Positions 1,420-44,081 of a DNA stretch of 53,246 nt are shown in pieces. Under the pieces are notes generated by a model, which made no database searches, had not been told where the DNA came from, and saw only the letters and a list, made by a program, of their open reading frames with translations. A program made the translations under genes and the position numbers. The stretch comes from Elusimicrobiota bacterium (GTDB lineage: Bacteria > Elusimicrobiota > UBA8919): contig JACRDL010000009.1 of the NCBI GenBank assembly GCA_016218625.1, positions 1 to 53,246 on the forward strand. Reading direction: 5' to 3'. Positions within the stretch are counted from its first letter, which is position 1; every line of letters begins with the position of its first letter.

Positions 1420-1597
1420 CGCTCGCAAGCAAATTTTCCAGACACGCCACCACCACCAATGTATTGGTGTGGGGGCACGCTCAGCCGACCACCCTGTCGG
1501 CTTCGCTCTAATCGTCGTCCCTAAAGGGACTTCCTTTGGTCGCTCTTGGAAAGAAAAGTCGCTCCTCAAGGGTCTGGATAAATTTCTTGCTTCACTC
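1420..1597. repeat. Dispersed hairpin element family A, copy 1, carrying two nested inserts
   Basis: Ends gcaagcaaattttccagac / gtctggataaatttcttgc; core shared with 3119-3237. Confidence 0.85.
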
Positions 1598-3118: not shown

Positions 3119-3237
3119 CGCTCGGCAGTAAATTTTTTCAGACACGCTCAGCCGACCGCCCTGTCGGCTTCGCTCTAATCGTCGCTCCTGAAAGCGAAGT
3201 CGCTCCTCAAGGGTCTGAATAAAATTTCTGCCTCGCT
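3119..3237. repeat. Dispersed hairpin element family A, copy 2
   Basis: cagacacgctcagccgacc..ctgtcggcttcgctctaatcgtcg..aagtcgctcctcaagggtctg shared with 1420-1597. Confidence 0.85.
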
Positions 3238-3263
3238 CATGATGAAAAAAAGGAGGATATAAC

Positions 3264-19963: not shown

Positions 19964-21236
19964 CATACTAGTCGGGTTTGCATTTGTGTTCGTTATGCCG
20001 TATTTTATCTGGCGGTATAAACTTGCTGCTTTTGATAAAATGGCTCTCGGCATAAAACAGCGTCTGGGGTTTTATGATATTGAAAAGGGAAAAGATATTT
20101 TAATTCATGCTTCATCTGTCGGCGAGTTGAAAACCATAACGATGTTTATTGAAAAATTGAAAAAAATGTTTCCTGGAAAAAAAATTCTTATATTAACAAT
20201 GACACCATATGGTTATAAATATGTTCTTGACAAAAAAATTGCCGATAAGGTTGTTTTTGCTCCGATTGATGTTCCATTTTGCGTTGAAAAATTATTTTTA
20301 AGGGTTATACCGGAGATGCTTATTCTTGTTGAGAGCGAACTTTGGCCGAATCTGATTTTTTCAGTCGCAAGGAAGGGTGCAAAAATTGTCTCAATTAATG
20401 CAAGGATGTCTGATAAAAGTTTTCGCAGATATTTGTTCGTAAAAGAGTTTATGGCGGAAATTCTGAAAAATATAGATTTTATTTGTGCCCGTGAGGAATC
20501 CGACAGAAATAAATTTATTGCTTTGGGATATGATGAAAAAAAGGTGATAAAAACCGGTAATATGAAATATGATAAAATTGAAACCGTTTCTACAAAAAGA
20601 AGTATAACAAACAAGGATTTCGGTTTTACCGATACCGATTTGATTTTTGTAGCAGGCAGCACCAGAGAGCAGGAAGAAGAAATAGTAATAAATGTTTATA
20701 AAAAATTGGCAGAGGAGTTTTCAAACTTAAAACTGACAATTGCGCCTCGTTATCCGGAAAGGTGCCAAGATGTAGAAAAAATTTTACAAAAAGAAAACAT
20801 ATCGTTTATCCGCAAATCCCAACTCCCCACTCCCCACTCCCTACTTCCCGCTTCCCGCTGCCTTTTGCTTGACACCATCGGAGAACTTACCGATGCCTAT
20901 TCAATAGGAACCATTACTTTCGTCGGCGGGAGTTTGTTTGACGGTGCCGGCGGGCATAATATGTTAGAGCCGGCGGAACTTGGCAAGACAGTTATCTTCG
21001 GTAAATTTGTCAAAAATTTTCAAGAGTCGGCTGAATTATTGATTTTACAAAAAGCAGCATTTCAGGTAAGCGATGAAAAAGAGTTTTGTAATTCCGCCCG
21101 CAGATTACTAATTGATGCAAAATTAAGAGATGAAATGGGAAAACGGGCAAAGGAAGTTGTCGTCAGCCGTCGCGGTGCAACCGATAAGAGCCTAAAAATC
21201 ATTTCGGAGATAATAAAAGATGATGCAAACAGATAA
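19926..21236 (+). CDS. waaA: 3-deoxy-D-manno-octulosonic acid (Kdo) transferase
   Basis: HASSVGE, ESELWPN, GSTRE, APRYPER, GGHNMLEP. Confidence 0.9.
   Translation: MRRFLLSVLLVYNILVGFAFVFVMPYFIWRYKLAAFDKMALGIKQRLGFYDIEKGKDILIHASSVGELKTITMFIEKLKKMFPGKKILILTMTPYGYKYVLDKKIADKVVFAPIDVPFCVEKLFLRVIPEMLILVESELWPNLIFSVARKGAKIVSINARMSDKSFRRYLFVKEFMAEILKNIDFICAREESDRNKFIALGYDEKKVIKTGNMKYDKIETVSTKRSITNKDFGFTDTDLIFVAGSTREQEEEIVINVYKKLAEEFSNLKLTIAPRYPERCQDVEKILQKENISFIRKSQLPTPHSLLPASRCLLLDTIGELTDAYSIGTITFVGGSLFDGAGGHNMLEPAELGKTVIFGKFVKNFQESAELLILQKAAFQVSDEKEFCNSARRLLIDAKLRDEMGKRAKEVVVSRRGATDKSLKIISEIIKDDANR
20817..20858 (+). repeat. 6x7-nt tandem repeat in frame in waaA
   Basis: tcccaac tccccac tccccac tccctac ttcccgc ttcccgc. 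Confidence 0.9.
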
Positions 21237-21309: not shown

Positions 21310-22338
21310 ATGCTTAAATTATCAACGGCCATAGGCAGTATGCCTCACAATGACAGGAAAAAAGCAATTGAGATTATTATGAAAAATCTTGCTATCCCTA
21401 TTTGGCCGCAACTTCCTAAAATAAGTTTCAGGGAAAGTATGTATGCACAGTATTCTGAGGGTTTCCCCTGCCTTGAAGTTTCTGAAAAAAACCAAAAAAT
21501 ATTTTTTGATACCAATGGCGATGTGCTTCTATCATTGGAAAAATTCTATGAAAAAATTATTGCTGACGATTTAGAGTATTTTAAGATTTCACAAGATTAT
21601 GCTGCTGGTTTGTATGAATTTATTTCTCAACTTTCCACTTTCCACTTCCCACTTCCCGCTGTTAAAGGGCAGATTACAGGACCAATTACCTTCGGTTTGA
21701 AGGTAACCGATAAAAATAACCGTTCCATATTCTATAACGAGCAATTCACCGATGTCGTGGTTAAAACGCTGACGATGAAAGCCAGATGGCAAATACGGCA
21801 ATTAAAAATTAAAAATGAAAAATTAAAAATTATTATGTTTATTGATGAACCGTATCTGTCTGCTTTTGGCAGCGCTTTTACGCAGGTTTCCCGTGAAGAA
21901 GTAATAAAATATCTTAACGAGGTTTCTGACGGTATTCACAAAGAACATTCACTGTCAGGGGTTCACTGCTGCGGAAATACCGACTGGTCGGTTTTAATGG
22001 ATACGAACATTGACATTATTTCCTTTGATGCTTACAGTTTTTTTGACGGATTAATTCTCTATCCCGAAAAACTGAATAAATTTTTCGAAAGAGGCGGAGT
22101 GTTAGCTTGGGGAATTGTGCCGAGTTCCGAACTAATAAATTCTGAAACGGTGGAATCATTGGCGGAAAATTTCACGGACAAAGTTCAACAACTTATTAAA
22201 AAGGGCATCACCGCCGAAGCGGTTAAAAATAGGTATATAATAACTCCATCCTGCGGCGTTGGCTCTCTATCGGAAGAACTTGCGGAAAAAATTATTGTGA
22301 TGACAAAAGATGTAGCGGAAAGTTTATTAAAAACATAG
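21310..22338 (+). CDS. Core single-barrel MetE-like methionine synthase (MesB-like)
   Basis: IGSMPH, WPQLP, GQITGP, IDEP, HCCG, TPSCG; 342 aa. Confidence 0.75.
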   Translation: MLKLSTAIGSMPHNDRKKAIEIIMKNLAIPIWPQLPKISFRESMYAQYSEGFPCLEVSEKNQKIFFDTNGDVLLSLEKFYEKIIADDLEYFKISQDYAAGLYEFISQLSTFHFPLPAVKGQITGPITFGLKVTDKNNRSIFYNEQFTDVVVKTLTMKARWQIRQLKIKNEKLKIIMFIDEPYLSAFGSAFTQVSREEVIKYLNEVSDGIHKEHSLSGVHCCGNTDWSVLMDTNIDIISFDAYSFFDGLILYPEKLNKFFERGGVLAWGIVPSSELINSETVESLAENFTDKVQQLIKKGITAEAVKNRYIITPSCGVGSLSEELAEKIIVMTKDVAESLLKT

Positions 22339-22469: not shown

Positions 22470-23228
22470 ATGATTATAGCGGTCTCCGGCAAAGGCGGAG
22501 TCGGAAAATCCACGATTTCGTCTTTGATTATAAAACAATTGGTTGAGAGTAAGAAATTCCCTGTTCTTGCGGTGGATGCCGACCCCAATAGTAATCTCGG
22601 ATATTATCTGGGTATTGATTGTCCCGCAGGAATAGCCGTTTCCGATTTGCGAGAGGATGAATTCAAAAAAAATCCGGCGGGAATTTCAAAAGTTGACTGG
22701 CTTAATATAAAAATGCAGGAGTGTATTTTTGAGACGGCCAAAGATTTTGATTTGCTCGTCATGGGGCGTCCCGAAGGTCCCGGTTGTTATTGCGCCGTCA
22801 ACAATCTTTTGAGGGATTTTTTGAAAAAAATCAGCCGGCAGTATCCGTTTGTCGTTATTGATAATGAAGCGGGTATGGAGCATCTCTCCCGTCGGACCAA
22901 TAATGAAATTGATGTGTTGTTTATAGTCGTCGAGCCGACAAATATAAGTTTTTTGGCTGCAGAAAATATAAAAAAAACAGCCCAACAACTGCCGATAAAA
23001 ATCAAAAAAAAATACATAGTTGTAAATAAATACCAGAACGAAAAAGTCAAAAACATTGAAGGTCTTGATATGATCGGTTATATTCGTTATAATAAAAATG
23101 TTTCCGACAATTTTGACCCTGTTAGAGATACCGTGTCACGGTGTGACATCTCTAACAGGGTTGATGCGGATAATTCCGAAATTAAGAATGATATTCAAAA
23201 GATTTTATTGAAATCGGGAATTTTATGA
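22470..23228 (+). CDS. cooC: CooC/AcsF-family nickel-insertion ATPase
   Basis: SGKGGVGKS, DADPN, GRPEGPGCYC, DNEAGMEHLSR. Confidence 0.85.
   Translation: MIIAVSGKGGVGKSTISSLIIKQLVESKKFPVLAVDADPNSNLGYYLGIDCPAGIAVSDLREDEFKKNPAGISKVDWLNIKMQECIFETAKDFDLLVMGRPEGPGCYCAVNNLLRDFLKKISRQYPFVVIDNEAGMEHLSRRTNNEIDVLFIVVEPTNISFLAAENIKKTAQQLPIKIKKKYIVVNKYQNEKVKNIEGLDMIGYIRYNKNVSDNFDPVRDTVSRCDISNRVDADNSEIKNDIQKILLKSGIL
23117..23164. mobile_element. Miniature palindromic insert, in frame in cooC
   Basis: ttga|ccctgttagaga..tctctaacaggg|ttga; 48 nt including one ttga. Confidence 0.8.
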
Positions 23229-36497: not shown

Positions 36498-36992
36498 GTG
36501 AGAAGTAAAAAACTAAAAATTATTACTCGCTACTCGCTACTCACTACTCGCTCAAAAGGTCAGACACTTATTGAGTTTGTTCTGATTGCTATTATTTCGA
36601 TTGCGCTTATTTTCGGAGTAATGGACCTTGCGCGGCTTTCATGGACGATGTTTCATCTACACGGCGCCGCATTTGCCGCCGCCAGAGCGGAAGCAGTCAG
36701 AAAAAGCGGATTTACGGCGGCAAACTATGTTACGATGAGAACGCTCGGCGGACACTGCCTTGTTTCTGTAAATAAATCGCATGAAGTACCGTCGCATAAT
36801 CCACCGTGGACAGTTCCTGGAGTCGCATTAAAGAAAGATGATGTAAGAATTTACGCTATTAACGCAACTGTTACATATTTATATAGACCGCTTTTTGCAG
36901 CCGGAGCATTTAAAACAGGTGTTATACCATTAAAGGTTTCGTCACGAATGCAGACGGAAATCCCGAATCCGATACCGCAATCAAGAAATTAA
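36498..36992 (+). CDS. TadE-like pseudopilin
   Basis: KG/QTLIEF, hydrophobic helix, AAFAAAR, VTYLY. Confidence 0.85.
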   Translation: MRSKKLKIITRYSLLTTRSKGQTLIEFVLIAIISIALIFGVMDLARLSWTMFHLHGAAFAAARAEAVRKSGFTAANYVTMRTLGGHCLVSVNKSHEVPSHNPPWTVPGVALKKDDVRIYAINATVTYLYRPLFAAGAFKTGVIPLKVSSRMQTEIPNPIPQSRN

Positions 36993-41033: not shown

Positions 41034-41714
41034 ATGAGCGGGGTTCTTTATGTTGTTGCAACACCGATAGGTAATCTCAAAGATATTACATTAAGGGCAT
41101 TAGAAACGCTTAAAGTGGTTGATTTAATTGCCTGCGAAGATACCCGTCGGACAAAAATTTTGCTCATGCATTATGACATAGCAAAACCGCAGATAAGTTT
41201 TTACTCGCAAAACCAGTTCAGAAAAATACCCTATCTGATAGATGAGTTGAAAAAAGGAAAAAATGTTGCACTTGTTTCGGATGCGGGAACTCCGGGTATT
41301 TCAGACCCCGGATTTTTTCTTGTAAAAAACGCAATTGAGCAGGGTTTAAAGGTTGAAACCATTCCCGGTGTTTCTGCGGTTGTTACGGCACTTTCGGCCA
41401 GCGGATTGGCAACCGACGGATTTGTATTTTTGGGATTTCTGCCGAGAAAAAAAGGCAAAATTAGAAAAGTTTTACAAAAAGTTGCAGGACTTGAAAAGAC
41501 AATAATTTTTTACGAGTCACCGTACCGACTAAAAAAAACACTGAAAATAATTACAGAAATTTTTCCGCCGGCTACCGATATTGTTGTTTGTCGCGAACTT
41601 ACGAAAAAATTTGAGGAGTTTATCCGCGGAAATACCTCGGATATAATTGAAAAACTTCCTGAAAAAATTTTGGGTGAAATTACAGTTTTAATTTCTGTAA
41701 AGAACAAAGGATAA
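41034..41714 (+). CDS. rsmI: 16S rRNA C1402 2'-O-methyltransferase
   Basis: VATPIGNL, CEDTR, SDAGTP, RELTK. Confidence 0.94.
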   Translation: MSGVLYVVATPIGNLKDITLRALETLKVVDLIACEDTRRTKILLMHYDIAKPQISFYSQNQFRKIPYLIDELKKGKNVALVSDAGTPGISDPGFFLVKNAIEQGLKVETIPGVSAVVTALSASGLATDGFVFLGFLPRKKGKIRKVLQKVAGLEKTIIFYESPYRLKKTLKIITEIFPPATDIVVCRELTKKFEEFIRGNTSDIIEKLPEKILGEITVLISVKNKG

Positions 41715-41775
41715 GCCGCAGAAGGACACAGAACTTCACTGAATTTTTCTGTGCACTTCTGTGATATTCTGTGGC
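41715..41775. repeat. 9-mer CACAGAA/TTCTGTG inverted tandem repeat
   Basis: gccgcagaaggacacagaacttcactgaa / ttctgtgcacttctgtgatattctgtggc. Confidence 0.85.
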
Positions 41776-41788
41776 AAAAAAAAAGAAA

Positions 41789-42802
41789 ATGATAAATGTT
41801 GCTATTGTCGGTGCAAAAGGTTATGCAGGAGAGGAACTCATAAAGATTCTTCTGAAACATTCGGGAGTAAAAATTACTTCTTTATCAGGCAGAATGGATG
41901 GGAAACCGAAGCATATATGCGAAATGTATCCATATTTAAAGGGTAATCTTGATATGTTTTGCGAGGATATTGATGAGAAAAAAATTGTCGAAAATGCAGA
42001 TATTATTTTTACCGCCCTGCCGCATATGGTTTCAATGGAAATTGTTTCAAAGTTTATATCTTTGGGTAAAAAAGTAATTGATTTAAGCGCTGATTTCCGT
42101 CTGAAAAACCCTGATATTTATGAAAAATGGTACGGAGTAAAACATGTAAATCCCGGACTTTTGGAAAAAGCGGTTTATGGACTCCCTGAACTTTATAGAA
42201 AAAAAATAAAAAAAGCAAAACTGATTGCAAATCCCGGTTGTTATCCTACGAGCATAATTTTGGGTTGTTATCCCGCGATTAAAGAAAAAATTGCCAAGAA
42301 AAAAGAAATAATTATTGATTCAAAAAGCGGATATTCAGGCGGCGGCAGGGAGTTTGCCAAAAATTACAAAGAACCGAATTGTTACGCATATCAAATCGGA
42401 GGAATTCACAGACATATTCCGGAAATTGAGCAGGAACTGAAATGTCAGATAACTTTCATTCCGCACATAATTCCGCAAGAGAGGGGAATGCTTTCAACTA
42501 TTTATTTGCAATTAAAAAAAGATATTTTCCCACGGGGACTTCCTGCGGTCGCTTTGGAGGATGTTGTTGCGGTTTACAAAAAATATTACGAGAACGAACC
42601 GTTTGTCAGAATAGTAGAAACAGCGATGACAAAAAATGTTGTCAATACAAATTATTGTGATATAGCGATAAATATTGACGGAAAAACAAATAATTTAATC
42701 ATCACATCCGCCATAGACAATCTTGTCAAAGGCGCCGCAGGTCAGGCCGTCCAAAACATGAATATAATGTTCGGCATTGACGAAAAAGAAGGTTTAATAT
42801 GA
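41789..42802 (+). CDS. argC: N-acetyl-gamma-glutamyl-phosphate reductase
   Basis: GAKGYAG, DLSADFR, ANPGCYPT, DNLVKGAAGQA. Confidence 0.95.
   Translation: MINVAIVGAKGYAGEELIKILLKHSGVKITSLSGRMDGKPKHICEMYPYLKGNLDMFCEDIDEKKIVENADIIFTALPHMVSMEIVSKFISLGKKVIDLSADFRLKNPDIYEKWYGVKHVNPGLLEKAVYGLPELYRKKIKKAKLIANPGCYPTSIILGCYPAIKEKIAKKKEIIIDSKSGYSGGGREFAKNYKEPNCYAYQIGGIHRHIPEIEQELKCQITFIPHIIPQERGMLSTIYLQLKKDIFPRGLPAVALEDVVAVYKKYYENEPFVRIVETAMTKNVVNTNYCDIAINIDGKTNNLIITSAIDNLVKGAAGQAVQNMNIMFGIDEKEGLI
42528..42551. mobile_element. 24-nt mini-insert in frame in argC
   Basis: tccc-acg-gggacttcc-tgc-ggtcg, same motif as 1518-1542. Confidence 0.7.
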
Positions 42803-42803
42803 A

Positions 42804-42904
42804 CCCCGCTCCTACTAAATTGTTGTTTGAGAAAATCTGCTTATTGAAAATATCAAATTCTAATTTTGTCAATTTTACTGGTTTTGCAGGAGGGGCGGGG
42901 TGAA
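42804..42904. mobile_element. Miniature CCCCG..CGGGG element at the argC/argJ junction
   Basis: tgaa|ccccgctcct..aggaggggcgggg|tgaa. Confidence 0.75.
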
Positions 42905-44081
42905 TTTTCCGAAAGGTTTTTTTGCTAACGGGTTGCATTGCGGGATAAAAAAAAACGGGAAAAAAGACCTGTCTATTTTTTATTCCGAAAAACCATCTGT
43001 TGCGGCCGGCGTATTCACGAAAAATATTTTTAAGGCGGCGCCCGTGATTATTTCACAAAAAAATATAAAAAATAAAATACATTGTATTGTGGCTAATTCT
43101 GGTTGTGCTAATGCTTGCACGGGTGAAAGGGGAATTGGTGATGTAAAAAAAATATGCGAGTTGACTGCGGATAAATTAAATGTAAAACCAGAAAATATTT
43201 TGGTTGCTTCAACCGGTGTGATTGGTCAGTATCTACCGATGGAAAAAATTGAAAACGGCATTAGGAAATTGTGTTTATATATTCCACCAACTAACCGACC
43301 GAAATCTGCTGTTGAAGGCATTATGACCACAGACACATTTCCCAAGGTTGTTTCTTCTACCTTCTACCTTCTACCTTCTACCCGCTGTACTATTTGGGCT
43401 TGTGCAAAAGGTTCCGGAATGATTGAGCCGAATTTGGCGACAATGCTTTCTTTCATTTTGACAGACGCGCAAATTACAAAAGAAGCATTAAGCCGTGCCT
43501 TGAAAATTGCGACTGAAAAAAGTTTTAATTGTCTGACTGTTGACGGAGATACATCAACTAATGACACAGTTTTTGTTCTTGCTAACGGAGCTGCAAAAAA
43601 TAAACTTATATCTGACGGTAAAAACTTTCAATTATTTTGCGATAAGTTAACTGCTGTTTGTATTGAACTTACAAAAATGCTTGCCAGTGACGGTGAGGGT
43701 GCGACAAAACTAATTGCCATAAATGTTAGAGACGCTAAAAATATCTGTGATGCAAAAAAAATTGCAAAAACGGTGGCAAATTCTCCGCTTGTTAAGACGG
43801 CTATTTTTGGAAATGACGCAAATTGGGGTCGCATAGTTGCTGCAATCGGAAGAAGTGAAGTAATGGTTGATTCAAAAAAAGTTGATGTTTCTTTCAGTAA
43901 TCTCTGTGTCTTCAAAAAAGGTTGCCCTGTTAGTTTTTCGGAAAAAATTGCAAGAAAAATTATATTACAAAAGGTTGTCTCTATAAATATAAACTTGAAT
44001 AGCGGAAAAGAGTATGCAACCGTTTATACATGCGATTTCAGCGACGGTTACATAAAAGTCAACGCTTCATATAGAACATGA
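42900..44081 (+). CDS. argJ: Bifunctional ornithine acetyltransferase
   Basis: NSGCANACTG, STGVIG, TTDT, KGSGMI..ATML, DTSTND, DGEGATK. Confidence 0.95.
   Translation: MNFPKGFFANGLHCGIKKNGKKDLSIFYSEKPSVAAGVFTKNIFKAAPVIISQKNIKNKIHCIVANSGCANACTGERGIGDVKKICELTADKLNVKPENILVASTGVIGQYLPMEKIENGIRKLCLYIPPTNRPKSAVEGIMTTDTFPKVVSSTFYLLPSTRCTIWACAKGSGMIEPNLATMLSFILTDAQITKEALSRALKIATEKSFNCLTVDGDTSTNDTVFVLANGAAKNKLISDGKNFQLFCDKLTAVCIELTKMLASDGEGATKLIAINVRDAKNICDAKKIAKTVANSPLVKTAIFGNDANWGRIVAAIGRSEVMVDSKKVDVSFSNLCVFKKGCPVSFSEKIARKIILQKVVSININLNSGKEYATVYTCDFSDGYIKVNASYRT

Follow-up and report, generated by a model that had tools for sequence, protein, structure and literature searches.

The question raised by this locus is how a segment of only 24 nt came to lie in frame within argC, and whether this segment and a similar one of 25 nt elsewhere in the same DNA are copies of a very small mobile unit filtered by reading frame, as an earlier note on the sequence had proposed. 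The window (the whole stretch of 53,246 nt that was analysed, from an Elusimicrobiota bacterium) carries argC, specifying N-acetyl-gamma-glutamyl-phosphate reductase, at 41771-42802 on the forward strand; the frame is open, its NPGCY motif is intact, and it scored 393 bits against TIGR01850 (cut-off 234). Within the flagged region 42521-42562, the argC copy, TCCCACGGGGACTTCCTGCGGTCG, occupies 42528-42551 (forward strand), has an ACG loop, and sits in frame at T^CT without target duplication. The 25-nt copy, TCCCTAAAGGGACTTCCTTTGGTCG, has a TAAA loop and lies at 1518-1542 (forward strand), at the site TCG^CTC within a composite intergenic repeat (1476-1597, forward strand) of repeat families D16 and D3. 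Both units were found as quoted; the sibling host repeat at 3143-3238 (forward strand), which matches 1476-1597, lacked the unit, as had been claimed, with its empty site at 3184^3185, and removal of the 24 nt from argC gave the predicted K-D-I-S-L-E-D. The pattern put forward in the note matched the window twice, compared with no match in any of 100 shuffles.

Further copies proved to be numerous. The same pattern recovered 14 copies from the whole genome (G000, a 1.8-Mb assembly that is 86% complete), and the core of the element, GGGAYTYCCnnnGGKCR, matched 70 times in G000 and 53, 46 and 55 times in its three congeners G001, G002 and G003, respectively. Among 397 other genomes sampled from the phylum the core gave 0-7 matches, mostly 0-2, which is near the reversed-pattern control, and seven other genomes of the same taxonomic family had 0 or 1 each. 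Copies were delimited in G000, in almost the whole of G001 and at some 30 loci in each of G002 and G003; of 203 candidates 196 were kept, the seven excluded being three false matches to a 48-nt repeat and four sequences that had no left end. The 196 copies fell into 80 site clusters and were mostly of 25 nt (116) or 24 nt (72), with six of 27 nt and two of 26 nt, and their consensus was YCCC-loop(3-6)-GGGA-YTYCC-nnn-GGTCR. The element is a non-autonomous, gene-less mobile DNA of 24-27 nt, and a structure-only scan of G000 and G001 returned no second multi-copy family with its fold.

Mobility was evident from filled and empty sites, both orthologous and paralogous. An alignable empty homologue was available for 116 of the 196 copies, and 74 of these pairs showed no indel within 12 nt; the exact pairs span 34 of the 80 site clusters, and the best empty site was in another genome for 58. 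In the other 42 pairs indels were present, for which nesting, variation among repeats or poor alignment was mostly responsible. There was no fixed target duplication, the left flank sharing no base with the element end at 40 of the 80 sites and the right flank none at 41. The target over the 80 clusters was TYG^CTY (T at -3 in 64, Y at -2 in 68, G at -1 in 42, C at +1 in 69, T at +2 in 58, and Y at +3 in 62), a sequence close to the element's own end-to-start junction. Insertion had occurred into other repeats and into the element's own copies: nine of the 196 were nested within another copy, the outer halves of which were also recovered. At one host-repeat site, 12 different element sequences were present among 16 copies, which fits repeated independent hits. 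A hairpin loop in or at the site was found outside the genus for 18 of 63 sites, compared with 19 of 252 control positions (p 2.5e-5, among the matches listed), while within the genus there was no excess (6 of 78 sites and 28 of 312 controls).

In ArgC, the insertion converts a Ser residue to F-P-R-G-L-P-A-V-A, a gain of eight residues, and the corresponding gap, which the earlier note had suggested looking for, was present in all 11 aligned relatives (three congeners and eight more distant). The congeners read KEISSAD, KETSLAD and KEISLAD at this position and, since their codons are ATT TCT TTG or close to it, the site is T^CT with no duplicated base. Exactly 24 bases were missing at 42528 in contigs of related organisms from three of four sequencing runs; the insert was present in the fourth, possibly the source sample. 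The best named ArgC matches were from Elusimicrobia and Endomicrobia (49-54%), and the gap relative to 1VKN and 8AFU would place the insert at a surface-loop position. Related contigs lack 88 bases at one end of argC and 101 at the other (41698-41785 and 42800-42900 of the window), and therefore further repeats are inserted at both borders of the gene.

The influence of reading frame was examined by removing the element and asking whether it had lain within an ORF of at least 150 codons. This was so for 30 of the 78 copies with a length of 3n and for two of the 118 others (Fisher p 4e-12), and in G000 alone for 13 of 23 and 1 of 52, respectively (p 1e-7), p values that are overstated because the copies are not independent. 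Both of the non-3n exceptions lay within composite intergenic repeats, and their ORFs are probably spurious. The filter is one-way, in that non-3n forms are excluded from genes and 3n forms occur both in and out of them. The contrast drawn earlier between a coding copy of 3n length and an intergenic copy of another length holds for the pair in the window, but the 24-nt form is not specific to genes: 26 of 35 ACG-loop copies were outside ORFs, and this form constitutes a separate active subfamily. The rare 3-nt and 6-nt loops are apparently length variants let through by the frame filter. Alignments with homologues showed clean inserts of 8-9 residues, or nested inserts of 16, in ArgC, DnaG, XerD, MutS, ProRS, L15, HemL, a UvrD/PcrA-type helicase and others; HisRS was among the genes hit, some of which were named through their G001 orthologue, and some protein alignments were ragged where further repeats adjoin the insert. 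The element is one way in which core proteins (ArgC, DnaG, XerD, MutS, ProRS, HisRS, L15) acquire insertions of 8-9 residues. With filled and empty sites and the 3n statistics pointing the same way, mobility and filtering by reading frame, as originally proposed, can be regarded as virtually certain.

Covariation suggests that one strand folds as two abutting hairpins, YCCC-loop-GGGA followed by Y-TY-CC-nnn-GG-TC-R. The combination of base 9 with the last base was C-G in 185 of 304 distinct copies, T-A in 105, T-G in 10 and C-A in two, counts that, like those for the other positions, are conditioned on the search pattern and on shared descent. Pair 2:7 was A-T in three copies (arm variant TACC..GGTA), and a fully paired second hairpin, TGACC..GGTCA, occurred at one locus. 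As the two hairpins abut, the first and last bases would meet in one helix, forming a nicked dumbbell, or a closed rod if circularised. Circular folds gave the dumbbell for most common variants; linear minimum-energy folds often favoured a different hairpin, so that the dumbbell came mainly from circular folding. Wobbles pointed both ways, C-A at 1:8 in 79 copies favouring the reverse strand, and T-G at 9:last and 11:19 the forward strand. Covariation between loop 1 and loop 2, as for an alternative single hairpin, was not evident, and GNA triloops on the reverse strand were ruled out as a DNA signature, genomes G591 and G762 having other loops.

Besides this Elusimicrobiota-like genus, the family has members in samples from three further phyla. 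A metagenome scan with a 25-nt pattern gave at least 123 loci, of which 22 were set aside as within the genus (identity of 81% or more between neighbours and G000 proteins) and at least 101 were outside it, with GC values of 0.28-0.72 among the matches listed. Judged by their appearance, the flanks outside the genus presumably belong to hairpin repeats of other taxa, REP and SRM among them. In the Omnitrophota sample, two of 151 genomes carried seven and four copies, including one head-to-tail pair, and the letters of the copy at 1518 were repeated exactly in three of the four copies of one genome from this sample, G1173. Two of 301 genomes in the Pseudomonadota sample had 12 copies and one copy of a 27-nt variant, and four of 201 in the Cyanobacteriota sample were positive, one with 11 copies (17 by the core) and three with singletons; the multi-copy genome is of about 30% GC and had no HIP1 in the seven loci read. 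None was found in 151 Bacteroidota genomes or in ten named genomes. These phylum-sample counts indicate that multi-copy carriage is patchy, at about 1% or less. Three of 121 Desulfobacterota genomes gave single atypical matches, which were not counted as members. Viral contigs gave 1, 0 and 1 match for three patterns, and BLAST searches of plasmids and phages gave weak partial hits, the one inspected being intergenic in a Ralstonia replicon and likewise not counted.

Among the metagenome matches listed, the element was found within IS3 elements at five loci, and related IS3 copies (L372, L374, L381, L384, L353, L357, L435 and L436) carried it at several different sites. The net gain at these insertions was 24 for 25-nt units in seven pairwise comparisons and 23 for one 24-nt unit, one base having been lost just 3' of the element. 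In G000, the end of contig C29, the start of C33 and the end of C88 share one IS-like terminus that begins TGTTAGCATTCAGG and carries a 25-nt copy, with an empty version on C30; the element here rides within another element that is itself multi-copy.

Set beside SDR1-8 by description only, the element appears to work like the small dispersed repeats (SDRs) of Nostocaceae, which were reportedly set out as SDR1-8 by Elhai et al. 2008 (Genome Res 18:1484). SDRs are 21-27 nt long, nest within themselves and share a fold, which in SDR4-6 is said to be kept by compensatory changes; they are not known to have a mobilising enzyme. The likeness extends to size (24-27 nt), precise filled and empty sites, nesting, and compensatory changes in the fold. 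According to passages in papers that cite SDRs (PMC4390886, PMC5861425, PMC2884548, PMC3116915), SDR5 inserts precisely between bases 3 and 4 of HIP1 (PMC4390886) and SDRs were reported to be absent outside Nostocaceae (PMC5861425). By contrast, the element described here is not confined to that family, and its target is TYG^CTY rather than HIP1. It also resembles REP/REPIN sequences and their RAYT enzymes, as far as these are covered in parts of PMC8266576, PMC3733652 and PMC3116915, being a short hairpin DNA with a stem mismatch and many copies, some of them in frame, in genomes that carry Y1 genes. It differs in that its ends are YCCC and GTCR, with no GTAG or CGTC tag, in having two abutting hairpins instead of one, and in inserting into REP-like repeats rather than being one; nor is it clustered round its own transposase gene, the Y1_Tnp gene of contig L407 being flanked by host repeats that carry the element.

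Rickettsia palindromic elements (RPEs) belong to one genus and are single palindromes of greater length, unlike the present element, which is of 24-27 nt, self-nesting and cross-phylum. In-frame insertion in conserved housekeeping genes is common to both, as RPEs are portrayed in a section of PMC3733652. MITEs, for which the same section gives 70-300 bp and terminal inverted repeats of 15-30 bp, are similarly non-autonomous and gene-less, but the element is far from that size and has neither terminal inverted repeats nor target duplication. SRM-like hairpins are among its hosts in other taxa, and a single-strand, hairpin-directed chemistry would be shared with the Ssn nucleases and their NTS/SRM repeats; however, the element is a passenger and not an SRM, and in the portion of PMC11893778 concerned Ssn was shown to cut, not to insert. 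Derivation from a group II intron found no support, there being no Rfam hit and no conservation of the fold in 22 reverse transcriptase (RT) motif sequences. Searches by sequence and by term in open full text, a scope that excludes subscription papers and the SDR paper, found no description of the element, and matches to its sequence words were, by title, to NF-kB decoy and primer papers.

How the element moves can be answered only tentatively. Our best guess, held at somewhat below even confidence, is that an enzyme of the Y1/HUH class (RAYT/TnpA-REP-like) that transfers single DNA strands, and whose gene lies elsewhere and serves other repeats, would act in trans: it would cut the element at both ends, release or copy it as a mini-circle, and the mini-circle would be joined into exposed single-stranded DNA such as hairpin loops, with hitch-hiking in IS elements and REP-type repeats carrying it between taxa. 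Precise ends without duplication, ends that would meet in one helix, and a preference for single-stranded loops all resemble the chemistry of IS200/IS605 and TnpA-REP. According to parts of PMC6006769 and PMC8266576, IS200/IS605 enzymes work through circular intermediates of single-stranded DNA and make contacts with stem mismatches and with loops. Y1_Tnp genes were present in all eight multi-copy carriers, but also in all seven non-carrier genomes of the same taxonomic family. On one metagenome contig (L407-L409), a Y1_Tnp gene had inverted repeats on either side, and three of these repeats carried an element each. No common neighbour emerged from Pfam searches of 104 ORFs at 58 metagenome loci, which gave one Y1_Tnp, one GIY-YIG, IS3 genes at five loci and otherwise ordinary genes, and in 20 Y1_Tnp loci that were read no element copy was found, bar one two-mismatch hit in a non-carrier. 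A search of G000 and G001 for an autonomous partner gave no long element with the same ends, and 13 left halves without a right half, considered for this role, proved to be nested or decayed copies. Clusters of small-protein paralogues in G000 yielded no candidate beyond two sets of three proteins, which we take to be Y1-type and four-helix-bundle-like, respectively; one G000 Y1 protein, compared with 17 genomes, had its closest match in the non-carrier G009. The element has no GTAG tag, and the cut between C and T made by TnpA-REP (as stated in a passage of PMC8266576) is readable for the 72 copies that start with C, not for the 124 that start with T (n=196). By a crude GC-skew proxy there was no replication-strand bias (70 vs 55, p 0.21), with G001 alone giving 36 vs 20 (p 0.044). 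The one-base loss at IS3 inserts is not accounted for by conservative strand transfer.

Two other routes were each considered possible, though less likely than transfer by a Y1/HUH enzyme and about equal to one another. The unit might be cut from a transcript as a small, perhaps circular, RNA and copied back by an RT borrowed from a group II intron or similar, a route that Elhai et al. reportedly suggested for SDRs. Tolerance of G-U type wobbles agrees with this, as do the group II introns of G001 and G002 (Rfam hits; RT E 4e-41) and an RT of similar score in G1159, none so scoring having been found in the seven non-carriers of the taxonomic family; but RVT_1 was detected in only four of the eight multi-copy carriers, G000 (86% complete) being one of the four in which it was not found, the element has no Rfam match, and coding copies show no bias to the mRNA sense (12 of 32, against a background of 34%). 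There is also a likeness between the reverse strand of the element and the codons that specify the RT motif RPLGIPTV: the only structure match with a changed first arm in G000 and G001 was at these codons in the RT gene of the G001 group II intron, which agrees with a natural variant in 17 of 18 stem positions, and a G762 variant reads PLGIPS on its reverse strand. This likeness was noticed after the fact, and in 22 distinct RT motif sequences taken from viral contigs the synonymous positions fitted the fold in 37 cases against 33 expected from codon use, none having all four. Since synonymous bases do not favour the fold, the likeness may follow from the use of Pro and Gly codons. It is improbable that the element originated in a group II intron RT gene, at its RPLGIP codons. 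Full group II introns are present in two congeners at L222 (G001:C13) and L221 (G002:C182), and G001 has three further RTs (L227, L230, L232), not of group II type by score and possibly of the diversity-generating type. Alternatively, a single-strand nuclease serving the host repeats (Ssn/GIY-YIG or similar) might open the target, whereupon a repair polymerase would switch template to a filled copy or a mini-circle. Many hosts, we assume from their look, are SRM/REP hairpins, and Ssn cuts single-stranded DNA beside hairpins of this kind, according to part of PMC11893778. The one-base losses in IS3 copies, the similarity of the target to the element's end-to-start junction, and small GIY-YIG genes in all four carriers tested would suit such a route. 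Yet the non-carrier G009 also has a small GIY-YIG gene, most insertions within the genus are exact, and the link between flank and end base seen in the genus (5 of 9 vs 5 of 70) was not reproduced outside it, where elements ending in A still had G at -1 in 22 of 34 and C at +1 in 23 of 34 among the matches listed; because these flanking bases do not follow the end base, pairing with the target does not set the site.

Passive spread would need no mobility at all, a few old insertions being carried in larger repeats by gene conversion, and the 15 largest site clusters, which are mostly host repeats, do account for over half of the 196 copies, and filled repeats sometimes have a flanking change in common. 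However, 54 of the 80 clusters are single-copy, many of them in unique genes (ArgC, DnaG, XerD, ProRS, L15, HisRS) with no homology for conversion, and one IS3 family was hit at several different sites; by the unique-site insertions this explanation is largely refuted and very unlikely. Chance or an assembly artefact, for which it may be said that all carriers seen are uncultured assemblies or contigs, has next to no probability, given that Markov-simulated genomes gave about one match against 82 real ones with a pattern comparable to the core, that reversed patterns gave none in the four carriers G000-G003, that copies lie at orthologous sites in separate assemblies, and that they obey the reading frame. 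On the evidence of carrier genes and orientation, a Y1/HUH enzyme acting in trans was ranked first, the RNA and nick-and-copy routes equal behind it, and passive spread after them. A more far-reaching version, somewhat less likely than the Y1/HUH proposal itself, is that these are cross-phylum hyperparasites of 24-27 nt. They would move as mini-dumbbells of single-stranded DNA, perhaps covalently closed, their sequence would be preserved to the letter from phylum to phylum by a single conserved enzyme that recognises the fold, and they would exploit the hairpin repeats of several unrelated nuclease systems; if this is true, hardly any self-specifying mobile DNA would be smaller, and the element would serve directly as a minimal substrate for scar-free insertion. 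The family offers exact ends, a target consensus from 80 sites, structural variants, a shortlist of candidate enzymes and carriers in several phyla, and the question of mobility is therefore testable with synthetic oligonucleotides.

Several other repeats were noted in passing. Short tandem runs of 7-mers occur in or at the edges of genes in the window at 20803-20866, 21625-21660, 36520-36569 and 43351-43386. A 48-nt palindromic element with the arms CCCYGTTAGA..TCTAACRGGG and a short duplicated flank lies at 23113-23160 of the window and at about 15 more sites of G000, and is in frame in many G000 genes relative to G001. G000 and G001 differ by 73 nt at G000:C42:17977, and within this difference a copy of the element lies in an apparent tRNA-like segment, the 3' part of which is duplicated. 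Other 24-nt insertions of unrelated sequence, some of them in frame, were seen at G000:C3:33888, C113:21059 and C94:30618, and at L326 and L272 of G001.
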